A stretch of 64,000 nt of DNA. It comes from Mytilus galloprovincialis (taxonomy: Eukaryota). This document shows, one piece after another, positions 3,001 through 53,800 of this stretch; position 1 is the first letter of the stretch, and the number at the start of each line of letters is the position of its first letter. The position numbers and the translations under genes are program-made. Location: positions 74,781,723 to 74,845,722 of the forward strand of contig NC_134841.1 in assembly GCF_965363235.1 (NCBI RefSeq), read 5' to 3'. The notes under the pieces were generated by a model that saw only the letters and a program-made list of their open reading frames with translations, searched no databases and had not been told where the DNA came from.

Positions 3001-6000
3001 TCTGTATATTAATAATAATAATGTAGTACTTTTAGATAATGAATATATATGATTTGTTGCTTATATAGGCATAGATGATCCATTTACATACATGTAATTA
3101 ATGAGATGAAGATATTTATAATGGGGAAAACACACCTTAATTTAGTAAATACTGGTGTTAAATGAAATGTAAATTTATACATGTTCAATGTGCGTCACAG
3201 ACAATGTGTGTGAAAAAAGAGTCTGATATTGATCAACAACTGGAAGTTTTTCCCTTTTTCCAGATACTGGGTGAGTTTGCTGATCTTTCTCCCAGCATTT
3301 CAAGACTTGATTTATAAGACTGACCAATTCTATAATTAAGCTCTATAAGTCTGGGATTTAAAAAAAAAGAAGGACATTTTGAACACAGGTCATCTTTGTT
3401 GTCAATGGTTGAGTAAATACTCAACGGGATGAAACCAAGTTTTTTGGTGTGGTTATCTCAATTATTAGTTCTCTGTGTAGTGTTTCGATGGCTGTTGTTG
3501 GTCCTTTTTCCTTGTTACGAGTATCTGTTTTTCTCTGACTTGTTGTTTTTGATTGCTACCATGGTATATTCTCCCTGTTTTCTGAAAGTTTTACTGGATT
3601 TAGAATCGTTTATTGTTTTGAATCAATTTGACAAAAGGAATGATTTGACCAGTCTTCTTCCCTGTTTTGAAGTTTTTATTATATATATATCTAAAAAAAA
3701 GTTTGGCCTAAAACAACAAATAGGTTTCTTTGACTACATGCTTTATATGTGCTTTGAATATCTTAACAGTCTGATCTATATACCTAGATATATATAAATA
3801 TAAGTAAACCTTCAGAACCTGACATTTTATATGAAATATATAAGTAATCCAATTTCCATATATAAATCTTAGATTTTTTATACCTTAAACAATTTTTTTT
3901 TTATATATGCATTTTTATATTTGTGTAATTTTGTAAACTGTTTGAAAATTGATTAAATTTTTTTTTTCTTCATATAAATTTCATAACCTTGTCTGAAATT
4001 TGTCTAATATTCTGAGATTCTGTGATTGGCTGAGTTTGTGAGGCCGAATTTGTTATAGGCTGAGTTTATAATAGTCTTGAGAACGTTCTTCTCTGAGTCA
4101 TAAGGGAGTCCAGCGGAAGTAGTAATATCAGAAACTGATAATAATGACGGAAAATACATCTGGAAATCATTTTATTTCAAATCATTCCCTAAATAACAAA
4201 AATAATTGTTTGGAAGGAAAACACACTACAGTTTGTATACTACTTTAAGGGTATAGAATTATATTGATTACTGTAATCTGAAAATCATCAGGCTGCTGTC
4301 CCATTGACATATAGTCCACTTCACCTATGTCTATCAGTTTTCACTTGTCAAAGTGTCAATTTCAATAGCACACTAATTATATATTTTTTTTAAATGTTGT
4401 ATAGACTATTTGCTACCTCTAGTTTTGATATTATGACTTAAAGATGTTCAGGGTTTGATCAATTAGGTATGATATTGTTCTTAATTTCTACACCTATGGT
4501 CTAAAAGTGTTTTGCTTAGGTATGTTAAACAAGAAGACAGATATTAGAATGTTACCGTCTGACACCTGTACTCTATTAGGTTCTATGATATATGTAGTAC
4601 ATTTCTTTAAACTGACATATAAGGTCAGGACTTCTGTTTCTGAGGTGTGAGTTAATGAGTTTTGGGTCAATTTGTATCTATATATGGTGTAAAAATTTAT
4701 ATATAACAGTTTACTAAAGGAGGCTTACAACATGTACAGCACATGTCTCAATAGATCAACAATAAAACCTGTTACAAGAGCCTGCAAATCTTGTGCCAAT
4801 CTAACAATTTTTCAAATTGTTTGAGGGCCAACAGACAACACAAACAAAAAATTTGACGATTTTCACTTAGTCAATGCATAATTCATTATTCCTTCATTCC
4901 TCTATATAACTTTAATCCATCTCCTTTGAATATTGAATTTAGTGGAAAATTGGGACAAACTAAAGTGTTATATTCATAGCTGATTGTTTAATGGTGTCAT
5001 TTCCTGACAGAATTTCCAGCAATTACATGTGCAAAATTGATGCTAATGAAATGTTTTGGTTAGAACAGGCTTCTGAAAACCAATCCTTCATATAGTGGGT
5101 AGAAAAGTTATCTTCAGGAAATTCTGACTTAATCATGTGCTTGAAAACTTGTGGTAAAAGGGAGTAAAGATTAAGACCCTGACTTCCTGTTCAATTACAC
5201 TTTTGTTTTGGTCAGACACTGGATTCTTTTGTATATACATGTAGCTAGCATATTCCTCTTTTTGACCTTGAAGATAAACAAATATGTTTCAGGCTGTACA
5301 TTATTAGTTTTATTTGCCAATGTCAACAAATATCCACACACATTTTATGAAAAGAAATCTATGTATTTTGAAATTGATTTCTCTTTTGAAACTAAACAAT
5401 AACAATGATTAGACATATGCCATTCACTCAGTGTGAAATATATATATTTATTCAAACACTTGACCTCGATCTAATAATAAAGATTATTCGAAACCAATAC
5501 CAGTTCCAATCAATAATATCAAAATTGTATCTGACACAACATGTGATGTTAAAAGTTAGAATATACCTATTTGAAAGTAAAATTTCATTTCCATTATTTC
5601 ATAACATATTGGATAATGAAGTCATGGCCTAGTTTTTTGACTTGTTGATGATGTGTTGTGAAATATGAAGATTTAAATGTTTGTCATGACGTCAACAGTC
5701 CCAGTTACTAGACAAACAATTCTGCGTACATGTAATTGGTGGGCTAAGTACATTTCTAAGTATTAAATCAAGTTTATGTTTATTTGTCCTTGCTCAAACT
5801 TCCTCATGCTTGTTCTTTTATTCAAAACTTTAAAATCTAAATTAAATTATGACATAAAAATTACGTTTAAAAGGAAATGTTCATCTGTTGTCAGGATGTT
5901 ATGTGATCATCGATTTTTACTCCTACACTGGATTAGTAACAGTGAAAACGTTCATTACTATAACAAAGATTGCACCACATTTTTGTGGCATCTGTTTAGG

Positions 6001-15831: not shown

Positions 15832-18800
15832 TGATAGTTGTCATGTAGTCTCATTTTATGTTGTATCATATTGACACAAATTTTGTGAGAGTTATGAATG
15901 GTGCAAATGATCATATATATTATTTCTCATTTTATAGCATTATCTCCCTTAAACTTACCCATACCCATAAATTTACTGCATATGATATTTTAATGTCCAT
16001 TTTATAATATTTGTAAGTTTATTTTACTGTTAGAGTTTGATTTGCATAAAGCTAAGTTTTCTGTGACCTCTATATTTAATAGCAAGTGGAAATGGCAAAT
16101 TTTATAATTATATGCTTGAAATTCACTTATTTTAACTGACAAGTCGACTTTAGCCAGGAAAATGAATGATGTAGAATTATGGACATTAGTTGATCTATAT
16201 TACATACAAGTAGACTTAAAAGAAACCTTTTTAAGAAGAATAGAAAAATAAACCATGAAGGTGGTACCTAACACTACAGGGAGATAACTCTGTAAAATCA
16301 GCTAAACATTTTAATTATGTTGTGTTGATAAGGGAATATTATGCTTCTCAATGATAAAAATTAGTGTTTGTCAAACTGCTATATATATAACCAGTGTAAT
16401 TTTTCTGATAAAATGGTTGGTTCAAATTTTTTGAAATTTTTATAATTTTGTCAAAGGGTCAAAGTGTTTACTGTCAAAATTTTATGAAAATTAAACGAGC
16501 CAAATTAATTTTAGTGAAGGTGTTGGGTACCACCTTAAACTACATTTTGGGAAAGAAACAATATTTTAGAACTTGGATTGATCCTTGCACTTCATTTGTC
16601 AAATTTCTAATACTTTGATATGAATATTGCCACTATTAAATGTAAATACAAATTTTAGGAAATTACCATGAAAAAATAGTTTATTGACAAGTATGTAGAA
16701 AACCTGGAATTTTAATAGTATTCTGTTGACCTCTGCTTTTATAGGAGTCAGTATAATATTATTCAGTACAAAAGTTGACCTCAGTATATTTTGTTTATTG
16801 ATAAGAAGGCATTTTATAAATTGTTTTATTTTTAACAATAGAAAAAACAACAACAAGAAACTAATGATTATAAAAGAGCATAATAATTTCTAGGAAGATT
16901 TGTCCCCTTCTAAAATATGTAACGCAAAGTCTGATTTTATTTATTCACTGATATATATAGTACAAAGGTCTTATATGAGCTGTTATAATAAATGTTAAGG
17001 GATACTATAAAAAAATAAAAAATTAGCATAATGTTCAAGACATTGTCTGAAATTTTTCAGGAAGGTCAGCAGGCCTGAAGAGGTATTTTAGGTATCTAGA
17101 CTAATTCCATTTGTATTTTTATCAATATAACAGGCTTTTCATAAAAGATGGCCATACCTTTATTGAACATTGATTCAAAAGCTGATACATGTACCTTTTA
17201 TTTTTTAATGTTTTGATATTATTTTCACAAAAGTTTGTGTTTTTATGAAAAGTAAGTTCAACTTTTATACATGTATCTCCTTTGACATGAATTTCCCACA
17301 AAACCAGCTTGTTGAATTTTAGCTTTATAATATTTTTATGACAAAGGTCTAGGTTGTTGAATTTGAAGTGAAAATGTCACATTATAAGTAGCATCTGTGA
17401 ATTTAGTGGAAATTTAACACACAAAAATTTAATTTGCTGTTTTGATCACCTAATAACCACAGGAATAATTGAAAGGTACATCAGCATGTTGGCGTTGTGT
17501 ATAATTATTTCAATTATTATTTATATAGCATTGTATTATCACCTATGAGCGGGTCTTTTAATACCTCAGACTACCAACTCGTTAATGTTATTTATTAAAT
17601 TTATAGCTAATTCTGTTTGAACACAGTTTATGCATTTTGTTAAAATATCTCCACATATATTTATCATATGATCATTTAAACCAATGTTGATTTTTTTCTG
17701 ATAGATGAAAGATATTGTTTTGTTATTGTGGGCTTATGAGAAATTTTAAAATGGTGCTCACTGGTCTGTGTACAAGGGAGATTATTCTCTGTTCACAGGA
17801 AAAAATAATTTACACAGCTTTGATTGGAAATTGAAGCTGTCATTGACAGGTATTTGTAATTGTCGTCACTGGCAATGAGTATTTGCAAGTGGTTTGTTCA
17901 ATCTTGTTGCAGAGTTTTTTATTTACTTTGTTCTACCTCATAAGTTTTGTTCAATTGTCTATGTGAATCTAACATCTTTTTGAGAAGTCAGTATGCTACA
18001 AAAAATCACTGTCATAATCCTACAAGAAAAAGAAAGTGTTATCATTTTTTTTTTTGGCTGCATTTACATTTACATTTTCTAAGAATACATATTATACAAC
18101 GAAAATGGACCAAAGATGAATTTCACATCCTTGCCTCAGAAGCTTAGTATCTTCTCCTAGCATAACTTGGGAAATAATAAAGATGGTAGTAAATTTGTCT
18201 CCCTTTTTCTAATCCTTATCAAAAGGAACATAAGTTGAAGGCAGTGATGTTTGAAGAAAACTTTTGTCTGATGGAATAGTGTATTTTTTTCCAACAGTGA
18301 AACGAGTAAAATTGCAAAAGTTGCCAAAAAATAGGGGAAAAAGAAAGAATTTAGAATGTAAGTTTGTTATAGTTTGCTTTAGTGTATTTTTTTATTTTTA
18401 TGCACTGATAGTTGGATTGATTGAAGAAAGAGTCATGTTTTGTTTTAAAATCCACGTTGAATGCAAATGTTTTAGTTTGTCAGATTTTATAAAAAAGGAA
18501 GGAAAAATGTAATGCAATGTATGTTTCATTTAAGTATATCATCACATATTTATTTATGTCATTTTTTTCCCTAGTCAGTCAGTGGTATATATTGTAGTTA
18601 TTTAGAATTTCTGTAATATTCGGAACTTGTATTTTTAATCATCAGTGATTGTGCAACCAAAATATCAGAGTTTTTGAAAATATGTCAATATAATCTTTTA
18701 ACAAAGTCATAGAGATGAATTGGAACTAATACAAAAATTAATGTTCTACTTTTATTTTAAATGAGAAGACTTATAATAAGTTAAATTTAATAAAAATTTA

Positions 18801-23875: not shown

Positions 23876-25747
23876 TTATAAAGTCAAAACAAGTACAAAG
23901 TTGAACAGCATTGACGATCCAAAATTCAAAAAAAAAAAAAACTGTGCCAAATACGGATAAAGTAACTATGCATGGGATATGAAAATCCGCAGTTTATCGA
24001 AAAATTCAAAGTTTTATAAACAGGAAATTTATAAAAATGACAACATAACATTGATGCTGATACTTTGGAAAGATTGTTCTTGGAGCACTAGGAAGAGTCA
24101 GCAAAATAACGTAGTTTGTAAGGTTAATTATGTAGTAAGGTATCCAATACAGTGACAGAAAATCCAGTTCTTCATCTTTGGTTGAATATCCAGAGGAACA
24201 AACGTAGCTATGATTATGAAGAATTTCCTTCTTTGTAAGTTTCGATGGGGTTTAAAAGTTGACTTTCTAAGTGAAATGTCAATACAATTTCCAAGCATTT
24301 AGTACAATGTGTTTTACACACAAAACGATGTAGTTTTTGGCTTTACCTGCATGGACAACACTATATTTGTCCAGTAGATAAAACAAGTGTTTTGCAACAT
24401 TTGGGTCTGTACAAATTGATGTAGTATGGGTATTCATAGAGACATTCAGTTTTCAATTCTTATTTGTGTCACAGCCTTAATCAATTCGGGAAGATTATAT
24501 AGGTCTTCTTTCTCGACTTAATACCATTACCTGGCATAATCCTCGACTTGATATATAATTATTTTGAAGTTGTAGTTCGATTGATGGATTTAGGCGGACG
24601 AAATGTCGGGCCTTTGGATAACACATTTTGCGGAGAAGTGTGATTGACAATGCTTAGGTCATAAGTAATAACGTTGCCAGCCGGACAATATATGAATGGA
24701 GAACTAGCACAGATGCAGAGGTTTAGACTTGAAGTCGTCAATATTGAGATCCAACATCACGTGATTGTAGAGTAAGAACATCCTGCTCCATATGTTTAGT
24801 TTAGTATATTTATATTAAAAAAAGGTCGAAAGATACCAAATGGTTATTCAAATTGATAAATCGAAAATAAACTGACAACGCCAAGGTTAAAAAAAGAAGC
24901 AGATATCAATAGTACACAAAACACAACATAAAAAAAGACTAAGCAACACGAACCCTCAAATGATAGATACAGGCTGATCTTTAAAATGTAAACTGCATCG
25001 AGGAATCATCAGTTCGGAAGTCAGGACTTCGGTACCGATTACCTCAACATTGACTACACAATTAACATTTTGTACGACTGACGTAATCTAAAAAAGACTG
25101 CAACGTGTATATTTCTGTCTGACAGGTATCATTTGACATGGACATCGTTTTCATGGTTTATTGGTCAATGTTAAGCCTTCTTTGTTTAGTTTGGTTCTTA
25201 GATACTATATGCAATTTGATCCAAATAATAATTTTAAGGTGTACATATCTGTTTTGCATGCTTTATTGATCAATATAAAACTTTCATTGTTTGGTCTGTT
25301 ACATTTATACTATATATAAGCAATAGGTCAACAATATTTGGTGTATGGCAAGATTGTGGGGTGTACATGTATTCATGGTTTGGTTTATCTGACATTACCT
25401 CATTTTCTTTGATCATGTAAAGTTTATGTGATACATGAAGTTAAACTTTATATCAACATAAATTCAATGGCAAATAATACATGCGAAACATTCCAGCGTG
25501 TGCACTTATATTTATTAACCCTTTCATCAGCCCAGTAGTCAGCACTTCGGTGTTGACATGAATATCAATTATATGGTAATTTTCATAAATTTCCTGTTAC
25601 AAAACTTGGAATTTTTCGAAAAACTTAGAATTGTCTTATCCCAGGAATTGATTACCTTATCCGTATTCAGCACAACTTTTTGGAATTTCGGATCCTCAAT
25701 GCTCTTCAACTTTGTACTTGTTTGACTTTATATTTTTTTTTTATCTG

Positions 25748-25793
25748 AACGTCACTGATGAGTCTTATGTAGACGAAACGCGCGTCTGGCGTA
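25748..25793 (+). ncRNA. Hammerhead ribozyme (type I-like minimal HHR), intact catalytic core
   Basis: ACGTCA-CTGATGA-GTCT(tatgt)AGAC-GAAAC-GCGCGTCTGGCGTA. Has CUGAUGA and GAAA boxes, 4-bp helix II with 5-nt loop, short helix III (CGC/GCG) and a GUA cleavage triplet. Helix I is ~1 bp, as in dimeric PLE/retrozyme HHRs. Confidence 0.65.
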
Positions 25794-25847
25794 TTAAATT
25801 ATAATCGTGGTACCTTTGATAACTATTTCAACTTTTTTTTATTTTAT

Positions 25848-25884
25848 CGTAACTGACGAGTAATTATAAACGAAACGCGTGTAC
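25848..25884 (+). ncRNA. Hammerhead ribozyme motif, degenerate (CTGACGAG...CGAAAC)
   Basis: AACTGACGAGTAATTATAAACGAAACGCGTGTAC. Core boxes recognisable; helix II lost. Confidence 0.3.
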
Positions 25885-28023
25885 AAAATGATCAAAATAC
25901 TAACTTGACAACCAAGTCACTGCTGATAGAGGTTTCTTCTAAGAAGGTATAACTAACTTAGCAGTCAGCACTTGTGTTTTGTTGAAATGAATTCTCATTG
26001 ATATGGCCATACTTAAAACCTAATTATTACACTACTTTGTTTTGTTCGAAATGCTAAAGAATGTATATCCATGGAATAAATTACCATGGCTATGTTTAAC
26101 AAAAAAAGTCGGAAAGATTGGTCCTCAATGCTCTTCAACTTCTTAATTTATTTGTTTTTTTACTTTTTATATTCGATTGCGTCGATGAGATTTGCGCGTC
26201 TAACGTTCAAAATAAAAAGTGTGGTATTTTTGATGATTTTTTTTTAAAACACAATGTCGATGCCTAACATGATTGAGATTTCCTCTCTGAGGGTATCACC
26301 AGCACGGTAGTCAGAAATTTTGTGTTGACATGAATTATCACAAACTACCTGTTCCAAACACTTTGAATTGCTTGAAATATTTATGATTTTTTATACCCAA
26401 GTCTAGATTATGTGAGCTGTATTTGACAAAACATTTTGGAATTTTGAGTTCTAAATGCTCATTGATTTACTTTCTTTATTTATTGAGCCTTTGATCCTTT
26501 TTTACCGCGTGGCAGATGAGTATTATGGTACCATTGATAAGTTGTTTTACAAACACTTGGTCGATGCCACTGCTGGCATGAATTATCCTTAGGATGGTCT
26601 TATTTCTAAATTAACTGTTTACGAAACTTTGAATTGTTCATAATATTGTTACGAAATGTGGGTCCCCTGAAATTTAACTTGTTCCCCTAAAATTGTGTGA
26701 TGACGTTGTTCAGACTAGAATACTGTTAAGATATTTGATATTTGTATTTATCGGTAATTTGTACATATTTCCTTTGATGTGTACTCGCTGATAATGTCAG
26801 TATCAGTGGACTGGCAGTGATATAAAAATTAGGGGGTCAGTACGCAAATGACATGCGCGAATGCAACGCGCAAAGATCTACTTTTCTCTTTCATTCGCAA
26901 AATTGCGCGTGAATTTTTTCGCAGAAATGAACGAATTTTTAGGCGAATGAAACACTTGTCATTGTTTGAAGCTCCCACAAAGTTAGTTTAGCCTTTTTGA
27001 TTGATTGTTGTGAAAATATGCCATGCACAGATAAACTTTATCTACACTATTATTGATAAATGCAATTCAAGCTTTCCTTGCTATTCACATGCCAAGGACG
27101 TACGTCTAACAGTAACATTTCGTTCATGCTGTTCCAATCCGAGTTTTTATTCATAAAATACCAATACATAGCCTGGTGCTGTTCCAAGTATAGTTTTCTT
27201 TTTCTGCTTCTTGAGAAGTATTTGTTTTACTTGTTCAGTCACTATAAAGTGTAATAGTTCATATTTAGACGCAACACATAAATAGTGACCAAAAAGGTAC
27301 CACTATTGCATGAGAGAATCTAGGGAAGAAAATGAAATACACATTTTCGACATTTTTGTGGGACTGTCATATACAATTTTAAAAGATGTGGTTTCATTGT
27401 CAATATAAAAGACAGATATTCATAGAACGAAGAGCAAAATAAAAGAACATATTTAAATGCAGATCTAGGATAAATTTTAAAAAGGGGGCACCAAACTAGA
27501 GGCTCACCTGATATTTTACTGTGATAAAGTCAGTATCAAAAACAATAATAAAGTCTGATATTTTACTGCGATAAAGTCCGTATAAAAAACAAAAAGTCTT
27601 TATTCTATATGTATTGATGATATTTAATGCATTTAACATTGAGTTTTACCATACAAAACCTTTACTCTAATCTACTCTTTTATATACGAGTTATTACCTC
27701 ACAAGAGTAACCAACCTTACCCGAATGGTAGACATATAACCAGAGTGCTACGAAACCAAAAGGCCATTCTACCGAAGAAGGGTCACCAGTAATAACTTGT
27801 ATTTCTTATATACTCGTACATTCTATCAAAACACATTCTTATAGCAACGCACTAAGACATAAACATTTATAGTTTAACACTAAGGCCCGACTGCTCGGTT
27901 TTCCTTACAATACTTATAATTGTATACCCCAGGAATAAATTACTTTGGCTGCATTTGACCAGACCCTTAGGAATAATAAGTTCTCAAAAGAAAATTTTTT
28001 TATTAAGCCTTTTTACTTTTTTT

Positions 28024-28071
28024 AGCGTCACTGGTGAGTCTTATGTAGACAAAATGTGCATCTGGCGTACA
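28024..28071 (+). ncRNA. Hammerhead ribozyme motif, degenerate (CTGGTGAG...AAAAT)
   Basis: AGCGTCACTGGTGAGTCTTATGTAGACAAAATGTGCATCTGGCGTAC. Confidence 0.3.
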
Positions 28072-29351
28072 AAATTATCAACCTGGTATATTTGATGAGT
28101 TAGTTTTACAACCACTGGGACGATGTCACTGCTGGTGGAGGTTTCGTACCCGAGAGTACCACCAGCCTAGAAGTTATCACAATTGTGGTGACATGAATTA
28201 TCTCTTATATGTTCATACCTATAAATTAACTTATCACAAAATTGAATGATTCGAATAACAAAGGATTTTAACCATAATAATAGATTACCGTAGCTGGATA
28301 TGCAAAATATTTCGAAATATAGGCCCTCAGCGGTCTTCAACTCAGCACTTTATTATTGATATGGTCATATTTATAAAATAACTTATCACAAAGCCTTGAA
28401 TTGTTCGAAATAACTATATAGTTATTGTTTCGCCCCGACGCTCTTAGTTCTGGATCTTTCGACCCATCTCTGTTATGAGATGTCTTTTCGATTTCGTTCT
28501 AACTGGTCTTTCATTTCAGCCTCACCTGTTCTGCGCCCAGATATCTTCGGACATATTTTTCCTTTCCCTTCTTGTATCCATCTTAGGGCAACTCTGGTCT
28601 TATCTTCACCTGGTCTTCGTAGAACATGACCAATCTATCTTCATCTTTATTGCCACAGTAGAGTTCCATGTTGTAGCCCTGTTGTTTCATTGGAACCTTT
28701 GTTTATGATCTTACGTGATCAGAATGTCCTTAAAAGCTTTCTAAGGTAGTCGTTGTAAAAACTGGAAAGATTGTTAATGTCTTTTCAGTCATTCTTTAGT
28801 ATTCTGTTCTATATGACAGCACTGATAGTACACATCTACAGTATAGGGTAATTTTAAGGTTCCGTCTGATGTTGCTATACTTCAAGATGTTGCGTAGCTT
28901 TAAAAAGCAGTTCTTGTTTTTCATATTCTGGCTCGGATGACTTTATCTACTCATCCATCTAATGCTACAATGCTGCCTAGGTAAGAGAATGATGAACTGC
29001 ATTACAGATGTGTCCCATTCATATCTATTATAGGAGGCTTTTAAAAGATGTTAAGGGGTATAAACTCTGATTCGGTGATGTTTAGTCCAACCTGACTTAC
29101 ATTCCCTTGTAACTTGGTGGTTTTGGTTTGAATCTATTTTTAAAGATGTGCCAGTAAAGCCAGATGATCTGCGGTGTCCAGGGTTTGAAGTCATAAAACT
29201 TTGCTCACTGCTTGGAGCACAAAAATCATGCTCGAAACATGAAATCCAGCATTTTGATTGGTTGATTTTGGAGTATGAGTACAAAAAAATGACCCGAAAG
29301 TTTTATGACTTCAAGGCCAGATCTTGGAAGATCTTCCATAGTTCGAGCTAA

Positions 29352-29377
29352 ACTAATGAGTCTTTTGTAGACGAAAC
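29352..29377 (+). ncRNA. 5' half of a hammerhead motif (CTAATGAGTCTTTTGTAGACGAAAC) interrupted by transposon insertion
   Basis: Joins with 33154-33175 (CGAAACGCTTGTCTGTCGTA) to restore CTAATGA-GTCT..AGAC-GAAAC-GCTTGTCTGTCGTA once the element and one TSD copy are removed. Confidence 0.5.
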
Positions 29378-29413
29378 TATGGAACGCCGTAACTGCCTTA
29401 TGGTACTTCATTC

Positions 29414-29742
29414 TTTATCATGATGAGGTTTTTCTTTATTATGATGAGGTTTTTCTCTATCATGATGAGGTTTTTCTCTATTATGATGAGCTTTTTCTTT
29501 ATTATGATGAGTTTTTTCTCTATTATGATGAGGTTTTTCTTTATTATGATGAGGTTTTTCTCTATTATGATGAGGTTTTTCTTTATTATGATGAGGTTTT
29601 TCTCTATTATGATGAGGTTTTTCTTTATCATGATGAGGTTTTTCTCTATCATGATGAGCTTTTTCTCTATCATGATGAGCTTTTTCTCTATTATGATGAG
29701 CTTTTTCTTTATTATGAGGTTTCTCTCTATTATGATGAGCTG
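29414..29742. repeat. Left subterminal array, ~16 x 21-bp unit (TATCATGATGAGGTTTTTCTC)
   Basis: Tandem imperfect 21-mers, alternating TCATGATGAGG / TTATGATGAGG variants. Produces the spurious ORFs 29398-29673(-) and 29420-29746(+). Confidence 0.8.
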
Positions 29743-29812
29743 TTAGAAGGGAATCATGGGAAATTAAGAGAATTATGGGAAATTAAGAGAATTAAGATAA
29801 ACAAAAAGAAAA

Positions 29813-30187
29813 ATGGCAGAATCAGAAACGTTGAAAGTTTTTCGGAAAGTTGGCTTGCTCCATGTGCGGGAAATGTTTGATAAAGAAAAAATAACACCAA
29901 ATATTGTCAGCATGCTTTCAAAACATGAACTGGAATATCTAGGAGTTTCCATTCCAGCCCATATGATGACACTGCGAATGGAATGCATTAAGTATGGAAA
30001 CATGAAACCTGAGAAAACTGATAGTTTGGATGGCCATCCAAAATACCATGTCGACAAAAATGTACTGGAATCGTTGTTGGATTGTGACTTTAAGATATCG
30101 GACAGTGGAAATCGCTTTCAACTCTCAAAGAGAACAATCTATCGACGGATGGCTCATTTTGGACTACAGAAAAGAGATTTTTTCTGA
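29813..30187 (+). CDS. Transposase N-terminal part: SAM-like domain + helix-turn-helix; frame broken in T6 run at 30178-30183
   Basis: MAESETLKVFRKVGLLHVREMFDKEKITPNIVSMLSKHELEYLGVSIPAHMMTLRMECIKYG resembles a sterile-alpha-motif fold. LSKRTIYRRMAHFGLQKRD is HTH-like. Deleting one T in GATTTTTTCTGAC joins this frame to the 30030-31130 frame (QKRDF|SDIDDDNLD). Confidence 0.5.
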   Translation: MAESETLKVFRKVGLLHVREMFDKEKITPNIVSMLSKHELEYLGVSIPAHMMTLRMECIKYGNMKPEKTDSLDGHPKYHVDKNVLESLLDCDFKISDSGNRFQLSKRTIYRRMAHFGLQKRDFF

Positions 30188-31130
30188 CATTGATGATGAC
30201 AACCTTGACAATATACTTTCCGGCATTGTGGTAGACTTTTCACGTTGTGGCGAACGCATGTTGCGTGAAATACTGAAAGGACAAGGAATTAAAATACAAA
30301 GATGGAGGTTAAGAGATGCCATTCATAGAATAGACTATGCTGGTACTCAAGAAAGAAAGACCGGTCGACTACACAGGCGTGTATACAACGTAATGGCACC
30401 GAACCACTTGTGGCACATAGACAGTAACCATAAATTAGTAAGATGGAGATTCATTATACTGGGTGGAGTTGATGGGTTCAGTAGGCTGATTATGTTCCTG
30501 CAGTGTCGTGACAACAACACTTCCGCCACCGTATTGAATAGCTTCCTCTGTGGAGTAGCGAATTTTGGTATATCCTTAAGGGTTCGGTCAGATAAGGGAC
30601 TAGAAAATGTATCTGTGGCGGATTTCATGTTGTCAAAACATGGTGACGGCAGTATGATTACAGGCCCAAGCACGCACAATCAGAGAATAGAGAGATTATG
30701 GAGGGACGTTTACGAGGGTGTTTTGAGCTATTTCTACAACTTATTCTATCATTTGGAAGATCAGGGAATTCTAGATCCACTAAGCGAACAGCATTTAGTA
30801 GGCCTGCACTACATTTACATGGATGAAATTAACAGAAGACTTGATATTTGGACTCAAGCTTGGGCAAGCCATAGAATGAGAACAACAAAATCATCTCCTA
30901 TCAACATTTGGATCGCCGGTCAAATACAGAATCAAGTTGGTACACAACTCAGTGAACGAGATTTAGTTGATTATGGATTAGAGGGAAACGTCGATGCGGC
31001 TAATCTTACGGACGACGGAAGGCCAATTAATGACCAACTTATTAGAGCAGATTTCAATAGGACAGGTACCAACTTTGGCATTGATGACTTTGTGAATTGT
31101 GTTGAATCCTTTCTGCACAAGCCTGATTGA
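30030..31130 (+). CDS. Transposase catalytic part: second HTH + DD(33)E integrase-like (rve-type) core
   Basis: WHIDSNHKL (D) ... 56 aa ... RVRSDKGLENV (D) ... 33 aa ... HNQRIERLWRDV (E). Spacing and surrounding residues match the retroviral-integrase/IS481-type DDE fold (established knowledge about the fold; family assignment not made). Confidence 0.6.
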   Translation: MAIQNTMSTKMYWNRCWIVTLRYRTVEIAFNSQREQSIDGWLILDYRKEIFSDIDDDNLDNILSGIVVDFSRCGERMLREILKGQGIKIQRWRLRDAIHRIDYAGTQERKTGRLHRRVYNVMAPNHLWHIDSNHKLVRWRFIILGGVDGFSRLIMFLQCRDNNTSATVLNSFLCGVANFGISLRVRSDKGLENVSVADFMLSKHGDGSMITGPSTHNQRIERLWRDVYEGVLSYFYNLFYHLEDQGILDPLSEQHLVGLHYIYMDEINRRLDIWTQAWASHRMRTTKSSPINIWIAGQIQNQVGTQLSERDLVDYGLEGNVDAANLTDDGRPINDQLIRADFNRTGTNFGIDDFVNCVESFLHKPD

Positions 31131-31799
31131 ACTTTTCAGTGACTTTTTGCATACAATAACAAGTAATATTTTACATGATCATTGTTTATTTCTTCGCCTG
31201 TTTTAGTCTTGTTTTTGTTTTCCGTCATTAAACTCATCTGGTACACCTATCTATAAAAGATGATGTTGTATGATTGCCAATATTAATGATACAACTCTTT
31301 ACATGAGACCAGATGACACAGACATTAACAACTATGCATTGTAGGTCACCTCACGGTATTCAACAATAAGCAAATCACATACCACATAGACCGCAATAAA
31401 AGGCCCTGAAATGACAATGTAAAACCATTCAAACGAGAAAACTAATTTATGTACAAAAATTAAAGAAAAACAAATATGTAACACATAAACAAATTACAAC
31501 CACTGAATTACTGGCTTCTGATTTTGGACAGGCACATAAATACAGAATGTCATGGTGTTAAACATGTTATCTGGAGCCCCAACTCTCCCTCTAACCTGGA
31601 ACAGTGGTGTAGCAGTACAACTTAGGAACGGACTATAAAAAATCAGTTGAAATGGCTAAACTCATCAGATGGATAAACATACAAATACTACTAATACAAG
31701 TGGACATGGCCGCGCGAGTACTTGTACATCCTTACAAAAGAAAACTAATAAAAAAAGATCATACATCTACGACTAAATTTTCAATTAGTACACATCAAC

Positions 31800-32560
31800 C
31801 AACTAGATACAATGAATATCCATAAAATGACCTTGAACCCTATTTATTTTCAAGGTCATGCGTCAAAGGTCAAGATCATTAATGGACTTCAAATTTTCAG
31901 CAGACACCCTTATGAACACAGTCACTCGAGAATCAAAATCTCTCAATGAATGTCAAGCAAGCGTAGAACAATGGATGTGCATAGCAAGACCTTGAACCCT
32001 AATGATTTCAAGGTCATTGGTCAATGTCCTTTGAGAATTTTTCATCCAATATCATCCTTGCGAACACTGTAGAATTACTATTGCTAAATGGATATCAACC
32101 ATTTTGGTACAATGAAAATCCATAATAGAGGAACTAAAGATACCAGAGGGACGGTCAAACTCATAAATCGAAAATAAACTGACAACACCTGGCTAAAAAG
32201 GAAAAAGACAAAACATAGAAAACTTAAGAATAAGCAACACGAACCCCACCAAAAACTAGGGGTGATCTCAGGTGCTCCGATAGGGTAAGCAGATCCTGCT
32301 CCACATGTGGCACCAGACATGTTGCTTATGTTAGAAAAAATCCGGTAAATAGTCATAACAAGACCTTGAACCCTATTGATTTACAAGGCCATGCGTCAAA
32401 GGTTTAGGTCTTTATGGGACTGAAATTTTCAGCAGAAAAGCTTATGAACACTACAATCAAAATATGTCAATTGATTTCAATTAAATGGAGTACAATGGAT
32501 TTCCATATCAAGACCTTGAACCCTAATTGAATTGATTTTCAGGGTCATTTAAGTACTTAG
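31800..32560. repeat. Internal tandem repeats (~270-bp period, 3-4 units) with palindromic core AAGACCTTGAACCCTA..TTCAAGGTCAT, inside the DNA transposon
   Basis: Units near 31800, 31980, 32350 and 32500 share ..AAGACCTTGAACCCTAATGATTTCAAGGTCATTGGTCAATG.. / ..GCGTCAAAGGTCAAGATCATTAATGGACTTCAAATTTTCAGCAGA.. Confidence 0.45.
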
Positions 32561-32851
32561 ATTTAATTTTAGCATTTAGGGTATAGTTAAATATCTGCAT
32601 AGCTTGACAACTCAGATCACATCAGAATTATTTGATATAGGATAAAAAGAGTTGGTTGAGGAATACAAAACATATAAATACAATATTTTTATTGAACAAA
32701 TTAAAAGAAAAATGGTAACAAATATTAAGATACTCAATCTTATTTTGTGACTAGATGAACACTAAATATGTCTTTGGTATCTACATAAGAAGTCAAAGGG
32801 GCGTATATAGTATCGGAGAGTGCAACGACATGGGCATTGTTTGGATATTAA

Positions 32852-33118
32852 GCTCATCATAATAAAGAAAAACCTCATCATAAAAGAGAAAAACCTCATC
32901 TTGATAGAGAAAAAGCTCATCATAATAAAGAAAAAGCTCATCATAATAAAGAAAAACCTCATCACAATAGAGAAAAACCTCATCATAATAAAGAAAAACC
33001 TCATCATAATAGAGAAAAACCTCATCATAATAAAGAAAAACCTCATCATAATTAAGAAAAACCTCATCATGATAGAGAAAAACCTCATCATAATAAAGAA
33101 AACCTCATCATGATAAAG
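32852..33118. repeat. Right subterminal array, ~13 x 21-bp unit (reverse complement GAGAAAAACCTCATCATGATA)
   Basis: Mirror image of the left array. Produces the spurious ORFs 32762-33178(-) and 32820-33113(+). Confidence 0.8.
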
Positions 33119-33454
33119 AATGAAGTACCATAAGGCAGTTACGGCGTTCCATACGAAACGCTTGTCTGTCGTACACAATTATAATCCTGTTATATTTGAT
33201 GAGTCATTCTTCAGCATATTTGATTAACGTTTACCGCATGTTGCACTTTGGTCAGCCATTATTCTAGCTGATAATTCCCGATGGGAATTCCATGTTTATT
33301 GTTCGATACCAGATTCGGGTTTCAATATTAATATATATGAAAAGTTTATTTTTTTGTTCTTTTTTGCTGACTTATGGCACAACTTTTTGGAATTTTGGGT
33401 CCTCAATGCTCTCTAACTTTGTATTTGTTTGGCTTTTTAACTATTTTGATCTGA

Positions 33455-33500
33455 GCGTCACTGATGAGTCTTATGTAGACGAAACGCGCGTCTGGCGTAT
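33455..33500 (+). ncRNA. Hammerhead ribozyme (intact core), in the repeat unit that hosts the DNA transposon
   Basis: GAGCGTCA-CTGATGA-GTCTTATGTAGAC-GAAAC-GCGCGTCTGGCGTA, then ATAAAATTATAATCCTGGTACTTTTGATAACTATT. Identical core to 25748-25793. Confidence 0.65.
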
Positions 33501-33722
33501 AAAATTATAATCCTGGTACTTTTGATAACTATTATAACCCTCTGCTTTTATTCATATCCAATATACATAAAACATAAATGAGGGTCATAGTAAGACGCAC
33601 AACGAAGTTGTTTTTAATGTATGTTTTAGTCTTATGGTATATGGTGTAAATAAACAAAAAAGAAAGCATGTTTAAGACATCATATTTTGAGATGGACCAA
33701 ATCAGCCTATCTGGACTATGTG

Positions 33723-33725
<3 letters not shown>

Positions 33726-33786
<61 letters not shown>
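33726..33786. repeat. (AT)n microsatellite, ~30 units
   Basis: Seen directly. Source of the YIYIYI ORF 33532-33915(-). Confidence 0.9.
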
Positions 33787-33790
<4 letters not shown>

Positions 33791-35044
33791 CAGATATGAC
33801 CGACAATAACCAGCGAGGAACACTGAATAACATGCTCTTGACAGCCACATAAAGCAAGTGACGGGCTTATAAGCGCCAAACCCTTTTCTAACCAGAGAAA
33901 GCGGTATACCAGCACAACATGGATATTGCTCGACTAATACGATTGAGAAGAAGCTAACAACTTACACAAAGACACAAACTACCGATCATACATTTCTCGT
34001 TGTTATAAAAAGCTAGTGCAAAACCAATTACAACTAATGCATAAAACATTTATTTTCTCTCAAGTATCAATCAATTCAAATCGAAAGGATTAAGTATGAG
34101 ACGCAACAACTTTGTGCAGTGGAAATTATAAGTACCTGTGGAACTATAATAAATTTGTAGCAATACATATTTATATTTATCAAAACAAAATCAATAGTTC
34201 CTAATACAACGCTATTCAAAATAAATATCTTTATTCCAAAGACCAATGATAATTCTTATTCTACACTTGTACTTGTCACAAAGTAATGGTATGTAGTTTA
34301 TATGACAGTAAAAATTTGATTTGAAGAAAAAACGAATACGACAAGAAGGACTTACTGACCTTCTTCACTTGAACGTGTTGAAGATTATCAATTATTAATA
34401 AGCTGTTACACGATGATGTATTTAAAAAACTCAGTTGCACTTCACCTGCATATTAACATAACACGTCAATCACATGTCCTATTGCGTTTAAAACAAACAA
34501 TGCTACTGTCATTGGTTTAAAAATAACGTCATTCTCGTGCACAAGACTTGCATCACAGTCAAGAAGTGCATATGCTTCCAAATGTATTTTTCTGTGGGAA
34601 AAAAATGTTCTCTCTTTTATTAGTCTATGGTTCTTTTGATATTTCTAAATGATAATTAATCTTAAGCTTTTATACTCTTTTAAATATCAAAGAAAAATAA
34701 ATCATTGACATGTATATTCCATAGCTTTTATCTACTGCTTTTCATTTCATTTAAAGCCTGTCACTAAACTCTTAAACTTAATACCCGTCTAGCAGTCTAA
34801 TAAAAATTCACATATATTTAGGGATTATTTACACGAACATTCGGTAAAAGAAATTTTAAACCCTGCATGTATCGTGCTTTTCGCTGAAAGACCCTTTTCT
34901 TTAATTATGGATCACCATCATTCTGCATTGACAATAATATTTTGGCGTAAATATGTTACACCGGGCGTACTCCCTCATCAATGTATCTAAAACATGACTA
35001 AAATTAGGTGTTTATTATGAATACGCCACATTAAAATCAGAAAA

Positions 35045-50859: not shown

Positions 50860-53800
50860 CTGTAAAAATATCTCAAACCAAATAGTTAGTGTTCCTTCCA
50901 CATTTACTGTGTAAACGATGATGTTTAGTATCAATTTTCATTAATTATGACGTGTGCCACTCAGTATACACCACATTTCCCTTAAAACGGTATCGTATAA
51001 TGCCAGAGAAAAGAAATAAATAATCTAGCTGCAGGGGTATCTGCTAACTATAAGAAAAACACGTTATTCAATGCCAAATATGAGGAATTGGCTCTGGTGT
51101 AAATATAAACTTTCAATCCATGTATCTTTGATAAGTTTATTGAGTAATGCGTCCATAGCAATTTTTATAAGGTAGGTCAGTACAAATCGTCTAATCTCTA
51201 ACTGTTTCAGTCGTTTATTGAACACAATTTATTGCTTGGAATGCACATATATACAATACATTCACCAAATAAATTTTGCGTACATTTCAACGTTTAGATT
51301 TAAGTGTTTCGTAAAAAGTATATCCAGACAAGCGCTAGGTACAAACCAAATTTATAAAATGCTTATTTTGAATTATATAAACAGAAAATAGTAAAAAATG
51401 TACATGATGCATCAACATTTCTTTTATATTTTCAAGCTTGCAATGACTGTCTGCTTATTGAAACTTATGCAAGGTCATGTTCTCAACAATGATATAACAG
51501 GTCCGACATCACAATTGTCGTCCCTTGATTTTCGTTGTTCACAAATATAGTCCCTAGTGTTGACAGTGGGTTACTTGACATTAATTTTTATACCCCTTCC
51601 AAATTTATGTCTCCATGTTTAATGCCTAAAATTGCAAGAAGGGGGGTGAAATTACACTGTATAAAAATTTGGGTTCAGAATTTTAAAGGAAAGTAGTGAT
51701 TTGGTCCAGCTGAAAAAGGTTGAAAATTAGCACTTCGGAAGCTGTCAAAAGATTTCAAGACGCCCTAAACATAAAATTGTCCATATTTTGAGTTAGAGCC
51801 GATGAAGTTTTCTATAATTTTGATATAATTTGTCCCAAAAGTAATACAACACACTGTAAAAATTTCATTGAGAAAGCGTAGGTGGGATTTTTTTTTAATT
51901 TTCATTTATCTTCTAAAAGAAATGCACTACGAAATAATTGTGGTCTCGGACCAACAATGATTGATGGTTTCGCCATAGGATTCGATGTAGCATCTATAAC
52001 TTGTGTGATTAAGTATATCTCATTAATTTTATTATAAATTCCTTTGGACCTAATACTAGTAGATATAAAAATAATAGACACAATTACAGTGAGTTGACTA
52101 TGTGTGTTACCGTTCACCTGTATCTATTGTTCAACCAGATTTACATCCCAGTTCCTTTGTTCTAACAGGGGTGATCTGAGCCGGATCACCCCTATCAGAT
52201 CACCCCAGTTTTAGTTTCTGTATTATGCATGCTTTCCTTTGTTCTGTAACATTTTGGCTGAAATGTCAAATCCAGTATAAAACTTATAATTAATTATACG
52301 GAGAAGACTATCTATCAAAATTCACGTAGAAAAAATCCAGTGTATATGCTGGGATTCGAACTCAAGACCTTTAGCATATCAAGCCACGACACATACACTT
52401 CATCAGGACGACTGGATCTATCAGAAATTTAACATACTTAAAGGAAGCAAGATATTTTTATAACTGGGGGGAGTTGGCAGACCTTTACTCAGTGGCGTTT
52501 AAACCCTTTTCGTTAAATAAATTAGTTGTCAGACTGATTGTTCAATTCGATTTTACACTTTTTTAAAGTTGGGCGAGTCGGTTACAAGAGTGGGGCGATT
52601 TTTTCATAAAGTGGCGATAAAGTGTGGGCCAATTGGCCAGTGGGGCGAGTTGATATTGTTTGATATCTACTTATCGTGTTAGGGGGTCATATAAAGAGTA
52701 TGCATCATATAGTAATATATAAAGTATATTATACTGGTTGTGTGTCTTTTTAAAGTAGATTTTATGAATGGTAAATGGTTTTTCGTCTAATCTTAAACAG
52801 CTGGGATGTAAAATAGTTATCCCATTCGGACTTGGTGTGTCAGTGTAAGATCATCCCGATGGCGTCCTTATGGGAAAACTATGAATGAAACATTGACAAT
52901 ACAATAGGGACATTTAAATTGACTATAGTGAGTGATAACATTTTGTGAGGGAATTCGATGTTTGCTATACCACTGTTCATTTTAACTCACTTTATGACAA
53001 AATCACTCATTCAATCAGAATGAAAATTTATGCAGTGTTTTAAGAAATGATTTTACTTTGTATTCACTTATTGTTTGAGAAACTTTTAGTGTTTGAAAAG
53101 GGCGAATTTTCTGTATAAAGTCAATAATTATGTTTATTGCCTTAAATACACAAATGAATGATCCAAAAACTATACCAATACTGAACGACATGTTTATGAA
53201 ACTAAAGCAAAACTTTTGGTTGATAATTTTTTATTAGTTATTGCGAAAATTGAACTAAAAATATTTGTCATTTTCTCCCTACCCAATTCACCCCTATTTC
53301 TTATATGATGTAGACCGGTCATTGTTATTGAATCTTACACAATTTGATTTGATAAAGCTATGTATTTGTTAACCTTACTGCACATGCTTTTCATACATGT
53401 ATATTAAATAAATCCGAACGTGCATGAATGTGTACAGTAACTGAAATGACCTTAAACTGGGCACTGGACGATTCCACATTCTGTTGTATCAATTAAACTA
53501 AAGGTATGATAGATAAGAAAGGCCACTTCTTATATTTTAACAAAATTTTACGAATACACAATTGAAAAATTATTTTTTAAAAGCCTATTGCGAAGAACAA
53601 ACGATATCTTACAAATAAGACGTTTTGCTTATTACAAAAAACCATTTATAAAAGATAAATGCCAAAATACATTTTACGCACAGCTACACCAGGTAAAAAC
53701 TATAGTGTTTATTTTAACCAAAAAAGAGCATTTTTCAATTTAATTGAAATATGTTAATTACAATTAATCCCATATAAATAAAGTCAATATAAGTCCGATC

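Follow-up and report, generated by a model that had tools for sequence, protein, structure and literature searches.

The window analysed here is a 64,000-nucleotide stretch of the Mytilus galloprovincialis genome. It contains a transposon of 3,776 bp (3.8 kb, window positions 29378–33153) that interrupts a degenerate unit of a hammerhead ribozyme (HHR) repeat family. The features of the locus, in window coordinates, are as follows.

25749–25792, plus strand: the window's best-preserved HHR of this family (Rfam Hammerhead_1, RF00163, 36.1 bits, above the gathering score; nhmmer)
29337–29377, plus strand: left half of the interrupted HHR-family unit, with GCTAAA as the helix I 5' strand, CTAATGA as the mutated core, GTCT..AGAC as helix II, and the GAAAC box
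29372–29377: left copy of the target-site duplication, CGAAAC, read directly and identical to 33154–33159
29378–29432, plus strand: left terminal inverted repeat (TIR), starting TATGGAACGCCGTAACTGCC; 55 nt, 100% complementary to 33099–33153
29411–29739, plus strand: subterminal array at the left end, in which a 21-bp unit, TTCTCTATTATGATGAGGTTT, is repeated 15.8 times (TRF); mirrored at the right end
29813–31130, plus strand: decayed transposase gene (ORFs, Pfam matches, alignment with relatives)
31794–32560, plus strand: internal non-coding region with a duplication at a spacing of roughly 530 bp and about 80% identity (repeat search)
32853–33120, minus strand: subterminal array at the right end, in which the 21-bp unit of the left array is repeated 12.8 times in inverted orientation (TRF)
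33099–33153, minus strand: right TIR, ending ...GGCGTTCCATA, the perfect partner of the left repeat
33154–33159: right copy of the target-site duplication, CGAAAC, read directly
33160–33204, plus strand: right half of the interrupted unit, with GC/TTGT as the helix III remnant, the cleavage-site C at 33166, TGTCGT as the helix I 3' strand, and the conserved tail AATTATAATCCTG..TTTGATGA
33455–33498, plus strand: next HHR of the same family, catalytic core intact (Rfam Hammerhead_1, 33.0 bits against a gathering score of 34, E 2.4e-4)

The transposon and its superfamily

The left junction reads ...CTAATGAGTCTTTTGTAGACGAAAC followed directly by TATGGAACGCC..., and the right junction ...GGCGTTCCATA followed directly by CGAAACGCTTGTCTGTCGTACACAATTATAATCCTG. 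The element therefore has TA..TA termini, read as TATGG...CCATA, and its terminal 29-mer, TATGGAACGCCGTAACTGCCTTATGGTAC, occurs twice in the window, at the two element ends, against an expectation of 0 from shuffled sequence. The flanks, boundaries and target-site duplication given in a preliminary description of this DNA are as quoted there, with perfect 55-nt TIRs and CGAAAC on both sides. The 21-bp subterminal arrays are presumed to be transposase-binding repeats. The internal non-coding region is part of the element: blastn shows it to be collinear in a complete M. trossulus copy, L001.

The transposase frame is broken by a +1 frameshift within a run of T at 30178–30183, where an ORF at 29813–30187 joins one at 30030–31130. 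Compared with P0122, an intact 445-aa relative, the protein has lost 8 aa through a deletion and differs at its C-terminus. The catalytic residues D203, D260 and E293 are present, and are invariant in the alignment with relatives. Pfam matches are to PF24764 (rva_4; 8.9e-73, residues 190–374) and PF00665 (rve; 2.3e-5), and the protein is of the 438–445 aa, rve/rva_4 integrase-type class. Among the best homologues, identity is 94% to both P0122 and M. trossulus XP_063432010, and 86% to the M. coruscus protein. No Pfam zinc finger or Integrase_Zn match was obtained for the transposase at E<=0.1, no CxxC motif is present in its sequence N-terminal to residue 190, and no recorded sequence is identical to the 366-aa ORF of the window.

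The published signature of the IS3EU/GingerRoot elements consists of TA..TA termini, a 6-bp duplication and the lack of an HHCC motif (PMC10045372; PMC6839031). The window element has these termini and this duplication length, and its rve-fold DDE transposase lacks an HHCC zinc-binding domain. Assigned in this way, by domain, termini and duplication length, it is most probably a cut-and-paste-type DNA transposon of the IS3EU/GingerRoot superfamily. It shares with the described members (2019, PMC6839031; Kojima and Bao 2023, PMC10045372) a DDE transposase of rve-like type, about 440 aa long and lacking the HHCC zinc finger, as well as long TIRs, animal hosts and the absence of a strict target sequence. 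It differs from them in its perfect 55-nt TIRs, followed by 13–16 copies of the 21-bp subterminal repeat, whereas the TIRs described for GingerRoot itself are 100–150 bp. The window copy is best regarded as non-functional but fairly young.

The preliminary description had drawn an analogy with the Dada transposons. Dada transposases are about 1,400 aa, are encoded by several exons, have zinc fingers of the CCCC/CCHC type along with a DxxH motif, and are akin to those of hAT, MuDR, P and Kolobok; the elements are 4.7–11 kb, and every family inserts strictly at its own site within snRNA or tRNA genes, as described by Kojima and Jurka (2013, PMC3706591). The window element shares none of these traits. 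Like Dada it is a class II element and, in this copy, lies inside a multicopy small-RNA-like sequence. Its 6-bp duplication fits the 6–7 bp of Dada but is common to several superfamilies and is not diagnostic. Unlike the large DxxH/zinc-finger proteins (about 1,000–1,400 aa), its transposase matches only rva_4 and rve. Dada identity was rejected on that Pfam result and the published description of the Dada transposase (PMC3706591), and the analogy does not extend to transposase architecture.

The interrupted hammerhead unit

The empty site was rebuilt in silico by removing the element and one CGAAAC, which gives the predicted empty allele ...GTAGACGAAACGCTTGTC.... A 221-nt HHR-repeat profile, built from seven other copies in the window, matches reconstructed positions 29337–29422 (window 29337–29377 plus 33160–33204) at profile positions 125–210, and the match runs uninterrupted over the junction (E 2e-17, 59 bits; nhmmer). 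The left half was identified by this match and by a motif search allowing 1 mismatch; the right half is 83% identical over 48 nt to the HHR-repeat copy at 33463 (blastn). As had been proposed, the transposon therefore sits within the GAAA box of a unit of the same family as 33455–33498. A weak match to Rfam Hammerhead_3 at 29336–29382 (24.5 bits, E 0.85) combines the left half-motif with the transposon end, and was rejected as a type III ribozyme. No ORF with a start codon crosses the reconstructed junction, and no allele lacking the insertion came to light.

Would excision of the transposon restore a ribozyme, as the same description held? The reconstructed core is CUAAUGA and not CUGAUGA, so that the invariant G5 is replaced by A, although GAAA is present. 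Substitutions of G5 abolish hammerhead cleavage. Of the helices, II (GUCU/AGAC) is undamaged, III (ACGC/UUGU) contains a mismatch as well as a wobble pair, and in I there are 4 of the 6 pairs left. The energy of the HHR structure is +1.3 kcal/mol for the reconstructed unit, as opposed to -3.1 and -3.4 for two intact copies. The unit is in addition a 5'-truncated fragment of roughly 85 nt, covering profile positions 125–210 only. Judged from its sequence, the restored motif is an HHR-like relic and not a catalytically plausible ribozyme. Real excision by a DDE transposase would, moreover, normally leave both CGAAAC copies in place and no precise empty site. On these grounds the proposed restoration of a ribozyme is not supported.

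The surrounding repeats belong to a family that is common in mussels. About 5,000 HHRs in repeats of 350–390 bp have been reported from the mussel genome (Cervera and de la Pena 2020, PMC7229834). The window family has the type I HHR in tandem repeats of about 350–390 bp that characterizes retrozymes. It resembles the mussel non-LTR retrozymes (PMC7229834) in its type I HHR, whose helix III is minimal (RF00163, 36.1 and 33.0 bits in the two intact copies), in its loose tandem arrays with units about 326–433 bp apart, and in its setting in a low-GC Mytilus genome. It differs in that the unit hit by the transposon is a relic that lacks its 5' part and has a mutated core. The predicted cleavage sites of the interrupted motif and of the HHR at 33455, which lies downstream, are 326 nt apart, a distance that would correspond to a retrozyme-like tandem spacing; profile matches place plus-strand units 336–433 bp apart at 25.6–26.5 kb. 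The HHR at 25749–25792 is one of a group of plus-strand units that lie loosely in tandem at 25.6–28.4 kb. The full HHR core is kept in two of the nine motifs of the window, the other seven being decayed like the interrupted one. Repeats of the HHR family make up 3.4% of the window; across the 141 kb examined, their share is 2.0%.

Insertion sites of related copies and target choice

If the element sought out HHR repeats, related copies should be found in them. The comparison set comprised 3 same-family and 5 sister-family copies or ends from M. trossulus, M. coruscus, M. edulis and Crassostrea. The sample is small, with 4 other complete insertions and 5 solo ends, only 3 of them same-family. 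Within the family, L001 is complete with the duplication GAAAAC, L003 (M. coruscus) is complete with the duplication GTTTGG, and L002 is a solo end flanked by AATCTG. Among the sister families, L018 has both ends and the duplication CACCCT, L017 has both ends and the duplication TGTTAG as well as one solo end flanked by ATATAA, and L006 has two left ends flanked by AGATTC and CTTAGT. The sister families have the same terminal 11-mer as the window family, conserved as far as oysters, and TA..TA termini are also found in L001, L018 and L006.

None of these 8 other ends or copies was shown to lie in an HHR repeat, and their duplications differ from CGAAAC; 6 of the 8 were checked by nhmmer and/or Rfam, and the two L006 ends were judged by flanking sequence only. 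Rfam found no HHR in L001, L002 or L003 at E<=1. The nhmmer profile had no match at the insertion sites of L001, L002, L003, L017 and L018, the nearest being about 820 bp away in L003. A wider search yielded little. An exact scan of metagenome and viral contigs for the 26-nt terminus gave 0 matches, and the peptide encoded by the TIR and array (WNAVTALWYF...), used as a query for junction-spanning ORFs, gave one irrelevant match (E 0.02). The 44 related metagenome loci are all at <=55% identity and from other hosts, with no complete element bearing a duplication; the single terminal-motif match among them was spurious. For the Crassostrea relative P0008, 23 of 24 contigs are Logan contigs of about 1.6 kb without flanks, and the Crassostrea genomic locus L006 has no clear terminal-repeat pair around the gene.

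We consider it very probable that an IS3EU/GingerRoot transposon, of a family without HHR targeting, was nested by chance in an old and decayed HHR repeat, and that its removal recreates no active ribozyme. A single insertion in such a repeat is unremarkable because the repeat covers 2–3.4% of the DNA examined. The transposon would have landed in an old, 5'-truncated and already decayed type I hammerhead 'retrozyme' unit within a local repeat cluster. The duplication would have arisen when CGAAAC was cut on the two strands at points 6 bp apart and the gaps were then repaired, as the chemistry of DDE transposases suggests; the position within the GAAA box would be incidental. This is how ordinary nested insertions of transposable elements look, with a younger element inside a decayed repeat of greater age that makes up a few percent of the genome, and nothing substantive sets the present case apart, its sole peculiarity being the GAAA-box coincidence. 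Given the small sample, there may be a modest enrichment at HHR repeats.

That same coincidence, an insertion exactly in the conserved GAAA box, and a duplication within the Dada size range are what speak for a transposon that specifically targets a structured HHR or small-RNA-like repeat as a safe haven, in the manner of Dada at snRNA and tRNA genes. Such targeting is nevertheless very improbable. The transposase of the window element has an architecture unrelated to that of Dada (PMC3706591), and the insertion of a whole family at one small-RNA-gene site, as in Dada, is contradicted by L001, L003, L018 and L017, which lie in unrelated sequences. The target copy is a degenerate fragment and not a conserved multicopy gene, and DDE transposases act on duplex DNA, for which RNA structure is irrelevant. 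The target preference for the HHR repeat raised in the preliminary description is not borne out by tabulation of the insertion sites, the check that it had itself put forward: the other retrievable copies lie in unrelated non-HHR sequence with other duplications, and the HHR GAAAC junction does not recur among them. An assembly artefact or chance similarity, with the duplication and split motif reflecting no real insertion, is hardly credible. No point in its support was found, and against it stand the perfect TIRs and 6-bp duplication, the contiguous profile match across the junction, and full-length collinear copies with 6-bp duplications of their own in two other Mytilus species.

A third alternative is that the family prefers a short target, roughly A immediately before SNAAAC, which the CGAAAC of the HHR fits, so that HHR repeats would be struck above their coverage among very many suitable sites. 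The duplications CGAAAC (window), GAAAAC (L001) and GTTTGG (L003; CCAAAC on the other strand) share AAAC at positions 3–6, and position -1 is A in all three complete same-family sites in the same orientation. In a simulation with real genomic hexamers, P=6.8e-4 was obtained for these three sites; for any three out of the five complete sites the value was 6.6e-3. The AAAC shared by these duplications implies that target choice may not be fully random. However, the pattern was spotted post hoc, and AAAC is missing at the fourth same-family site (the L002 solo end) and at all sister-family sites (CACCCT, TGTTAG, ATATAA, AGATTC and CTTAGT). Likewise, 72 GingerRoot duplications show no apparent nucleotide preference (PMC6839031), and in a genome of 67% A+T, AAAC occurs about every 80 bp when both strands are counted and would confer little specificity. 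We regard this preference as unlikely, though less so than the targeting of HHR repeats as such.

Significance for the family and its hosts

The picture of a transposon inside a ribozyme resolves into an ordinary nested insertion in a dead repeat, and as it stands it matters little. What the locus does provide is a well-delimited mussel element of the IS3EU/GingerRoot kind, copies of which occur in three or more Mytilus species. If the AAAC lead were true, thousands of hammerhead/retrozyme repeats would offer, in their invariant CGAAAC box, a place where the element could land again and again, mostly without harm, and a superfamily described until now as without nucleotide preference would show a weak 'safe-haven' bias driven by sequence. 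Should the bias hold genome-wide, it would be the first preference for a target sequence in this superfamily, on which little work has been done, while still falling short of a site specificity like that of Dada.

Element boundaries and the interrupted repeat unit

Read directly from the window, the left flank ends ...CTAATGAGTCTTTTGTAGACGAAAC and the element starts TATGGAACGCCGTAACTGCC... at 29378, while its 3' end, ...GGCGTTCCATA, lies at 33153 and is followed by the flank CGAAACGCTTGTCTGTCGTACACAATTATAATCCTG. These flanks are as the preliminary description quoted them, and the boundaries and the 6 bp target-site duplication (TSD) are confirmed by perfect 55 nt inverted repeats, by a terminal 29-mer occurring twice in the window, at both element ends (0 expected from 100 shuffles), and by CGAAAC on each side.

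Repeats of the element and its target-site duplication
29372–29377 and 33154–33159: CGAAAC duplication, on both sides of the element
29378–29432 and 33099–33153: terminal inverted repeats, 55 nt, 100% complementary
29411–29739: left array of 21 bp units, 15.8 copies, inside the terminal repeat
32853–33120: right array of 21 bp units, 12.8 copies, inside the terminal repeat

With a degenerate core pattern, nine hammerhead ribozyme (HHR) cores are found in the window and none are expected. Two of the nine are intact, at 25749–25792 (Rfam Hammerhead_1, 36.1 bits; gathering score, 34) and at 33455–33498 (33.0 bits, below that score); the others have mutated CUGAUGA or GAAA boxes. A 221 nt profile of the HHR repeat was built from seven copies, and an empty site was reconstructed as the window minus the element and one CGAAAC. 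Profile positions 125–210 match reconstructed 29337–29422 (window 29337–29377 plus 33160–33204; E 2e-17), unbroken through the junction, as expected of the contiguous unit of the same family that had been claimed. By this match, one unit of the HHR repeat family is split by the element. The duplicated hexamer comprises the last helix II base, the core GAA and the first two helix III bases. Predicted cleavage in the interrupted motif is after 33166, 326 nt upstream of that in the intact HHR at 33455–33498 (after 33492).

The repeat family fits the mussel 'retrozyme', with about 5,000 type I HHRs in 350–390 bp tandem repeats (PMC7229834). Plus-strand units here are 336–433 bp apart and form a loose tandem cluster with this spacing at 25621–28357. 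Elsewhere in the window, an (AT)n microsatellite (33719–33794) gives spurious sub-threshold Rfam matches to mir-297 and mir-1277, and a tRNA-like match at 52341–52398 (-) (24.5 bits, below the gathering score of 29) may represent a pseudogene or the head of a tRNA-derived SINE.

State of the reconstructed ribozyme

Would excision restore the ribozyme, as was proposed? Aligned, the two intact copies read GCGUCA-CUGAUGA-GUC..GAC-GAA-ACGC-GCGU-C-UGGCGU and the reconstructed motif GCUAAA-CUAAUGA-GUC..GAC-GAA-ACGC-UUGU-C-UGUCGU. The reconstruction has A in place of the invariant G5 of the CUGAUGA box, a change that abolishes hammerhead cleavage. Of the six helix I pairs, four remain. Helix III has one mismatch and one wobble pair, and the HHR structure has an energy of +1.3 kcal/mol, whereas the intact copies reach -3.1 and -3.4. 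The interrupted copy retains just 85 nt of the 221 nt unit, from its 3' part. Removal of the element would not yield a functional ribozyme. Moreover, excision by DDE enzymes normally leaves the duplication in place, so that any 'restoration' is in silico only. Seven of the nine HHR motifs in the window are core-mutated like the interrupted one. The element is comparatively young, its terminal repeats and duplication both being perfect, and the insertion therefore most likely struck a unit that had already died.

Transposase and internal structure

Overlapping ORFs at 29813–30187 and 30030–31130 together give a 438 aa protein when an extra T is dropped from the run at 30178–30183. It matches Pfam PF24764 (rva_4, integrase core domain; 8.9e-73) and, weakly, PF00665 (rve); Pfam detected no zinc-finger domain. 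Its nearest relatives are proteins of Mytilus trossulus (94%) and M. coruscus (86%) and an intact 445 aa Logan protein, P0122 (94%), which identifies the window as mussel DNA. With one frameshift, an 8 aa deletion and an altered C-terminus, the gene reads as a mildly decayed pseudogene.

Dada elements by definition encode a multi-exon transposase of about 1,400 aa, in which a DxxH motif is combined with two zinc fingers (PMC3706591); against this definition, Dada identity was rejected for the 438 aa rva_4/rve protein. The published signature of IS3EU/GingerRoot is TA..TA termini, TSDs usually of 6 bp and absence of the HHCC motif (PMC10045372; PMC6839031), and all of these are found here. Placed by these signature features, the element adds a new Mytilus member to this known kind. 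Its subterminal 21 bp arrays exceed in length the terminal inverted repeats published for GingerRoot and, when translated, give long spurious ORFs of MMRFF repeats on either strand. The non-coding 3' part contains an internal duplication at 31794–32560 (~530 bp spacing, ~80% identity), in which a hairpin-like AAGACCTTGAACCCTA...TCAAGGTCAT motif recurs; the M. trossulus copy is collinear over this region and has an additional insertion of ~400 bp.

Insertion sites of related copies

All other retrievable copies were compared. The sister families have 54–64% protein identity and the terminal 11-mer TATGGAACGCC in common.

Other copies and the sequences at their ends
L001, M. trossulus: same family, complete, 92% identical; duplication GAAAAC
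L003, M. coruscus: same family, complete, 1 nt insertion in left terminus; duplication GTTTGG
L002, M. coruscus: same family, solo end; flank AATCTG
L018, M. coruscus: sister family; CACCCT at both ends
L017, M. edulis: sister family, left terminus diverged; TGTTAG at both ends
L017, neighbouring solo end: flank ATATAA
L006, Crassostrea angulata: sister family, two left ends; flanks AGATTC and CTTAGT

At a cut-off as loose as E<=1, Rfam still yields no hammerhead for L001, L002 or L003, and the HHR profile has no match at the insertion sites of L001, L002, L003, L017 and L018, the nearest being ~820 bp off, in L003. No HHR repeat was found at the two L006 ends, judged from flanking sequence only. 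Other copies at unrelated sequences with unrelated TSDs are the outcome that the preliminary description had named as refuting a site preference; with the scanned copies lying at non-HHR sites with different duplications, the suggested target preference for HHR repeats fails. The retrieved copies exclude strict Dada-like HHR specificity and are compatible with mild HHR enrichment. HHR repeats make up 3.4% of the window sequence and 2.0% of all 141 kb analysed, and the window insertion lies within a local cluster of units; one HHR insertion, which is also the one from which the finding arose, is within chance expectation.

Might the family instead prefer a short motif? In one orientation, the three complete same-family duplications are A/CGAAAC, A/GAAAAC and A/CCAAAC, with AAAC at positions 3–6 in all three. 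Among sampled real genomic hexamers, three sites with a common in-register 4-mer in any orientation have P=6.8e-4, and any such triple among five complete sites P=6.6e-3. However, the pattern was spotted post hoc, AAAC is absent from the fourth same-family end and every sister-family site, and nucleotide preference was not apparent among 72 GingerRoot duplications (PMC6839031). A real AAAC preference is therefore improbable and, if true, would not amount to HHR targeting because AAAC is so frequent in an AT-rich genome.

The 11-mer, often extended to ~25 nt, is conserved in Mytilus and Crassostrea (L006:2811–2846 and 4351–4386; L017:10384–10419; L018:9390–9425 and 17039–17074; window 29378–29388), which suggests strong constraint on the site by which transposases of this bivalve IS3EU/GingerRoot clade recognise element ends. 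At L017:5500–5600 a gap of ~35 bp, in which an ATGGAAC fragment lies, separates the left end of the M. edulis element from the solo right end of another, related one (...GGCGTTCCATA at 5542), the two insertions being nested or adjacent. In Crassostrea, the homologue P0008 (442 aa) recurs with identical sequence on ~1.6 kb Logan contigs (L007–L015) from many sequencing runs, and no pair of terminal repeats is obvious at its genomic locus, L006. Expression or domestication of this copy is one possible reading, a collapsed repeat another.

What was first observed (the split unit, the boundaries and the TSD) stands, and its interpretation is only partly supported, with ribozyme restoration, the Dada analogy and HHR targeting set aside. 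The juxtaposition is an ordinary nested insertion whose target, to judge from its core and length, is a decayed copy of a known retrozyme repeat, and the split HHR helps to pin the boundaries of the element.
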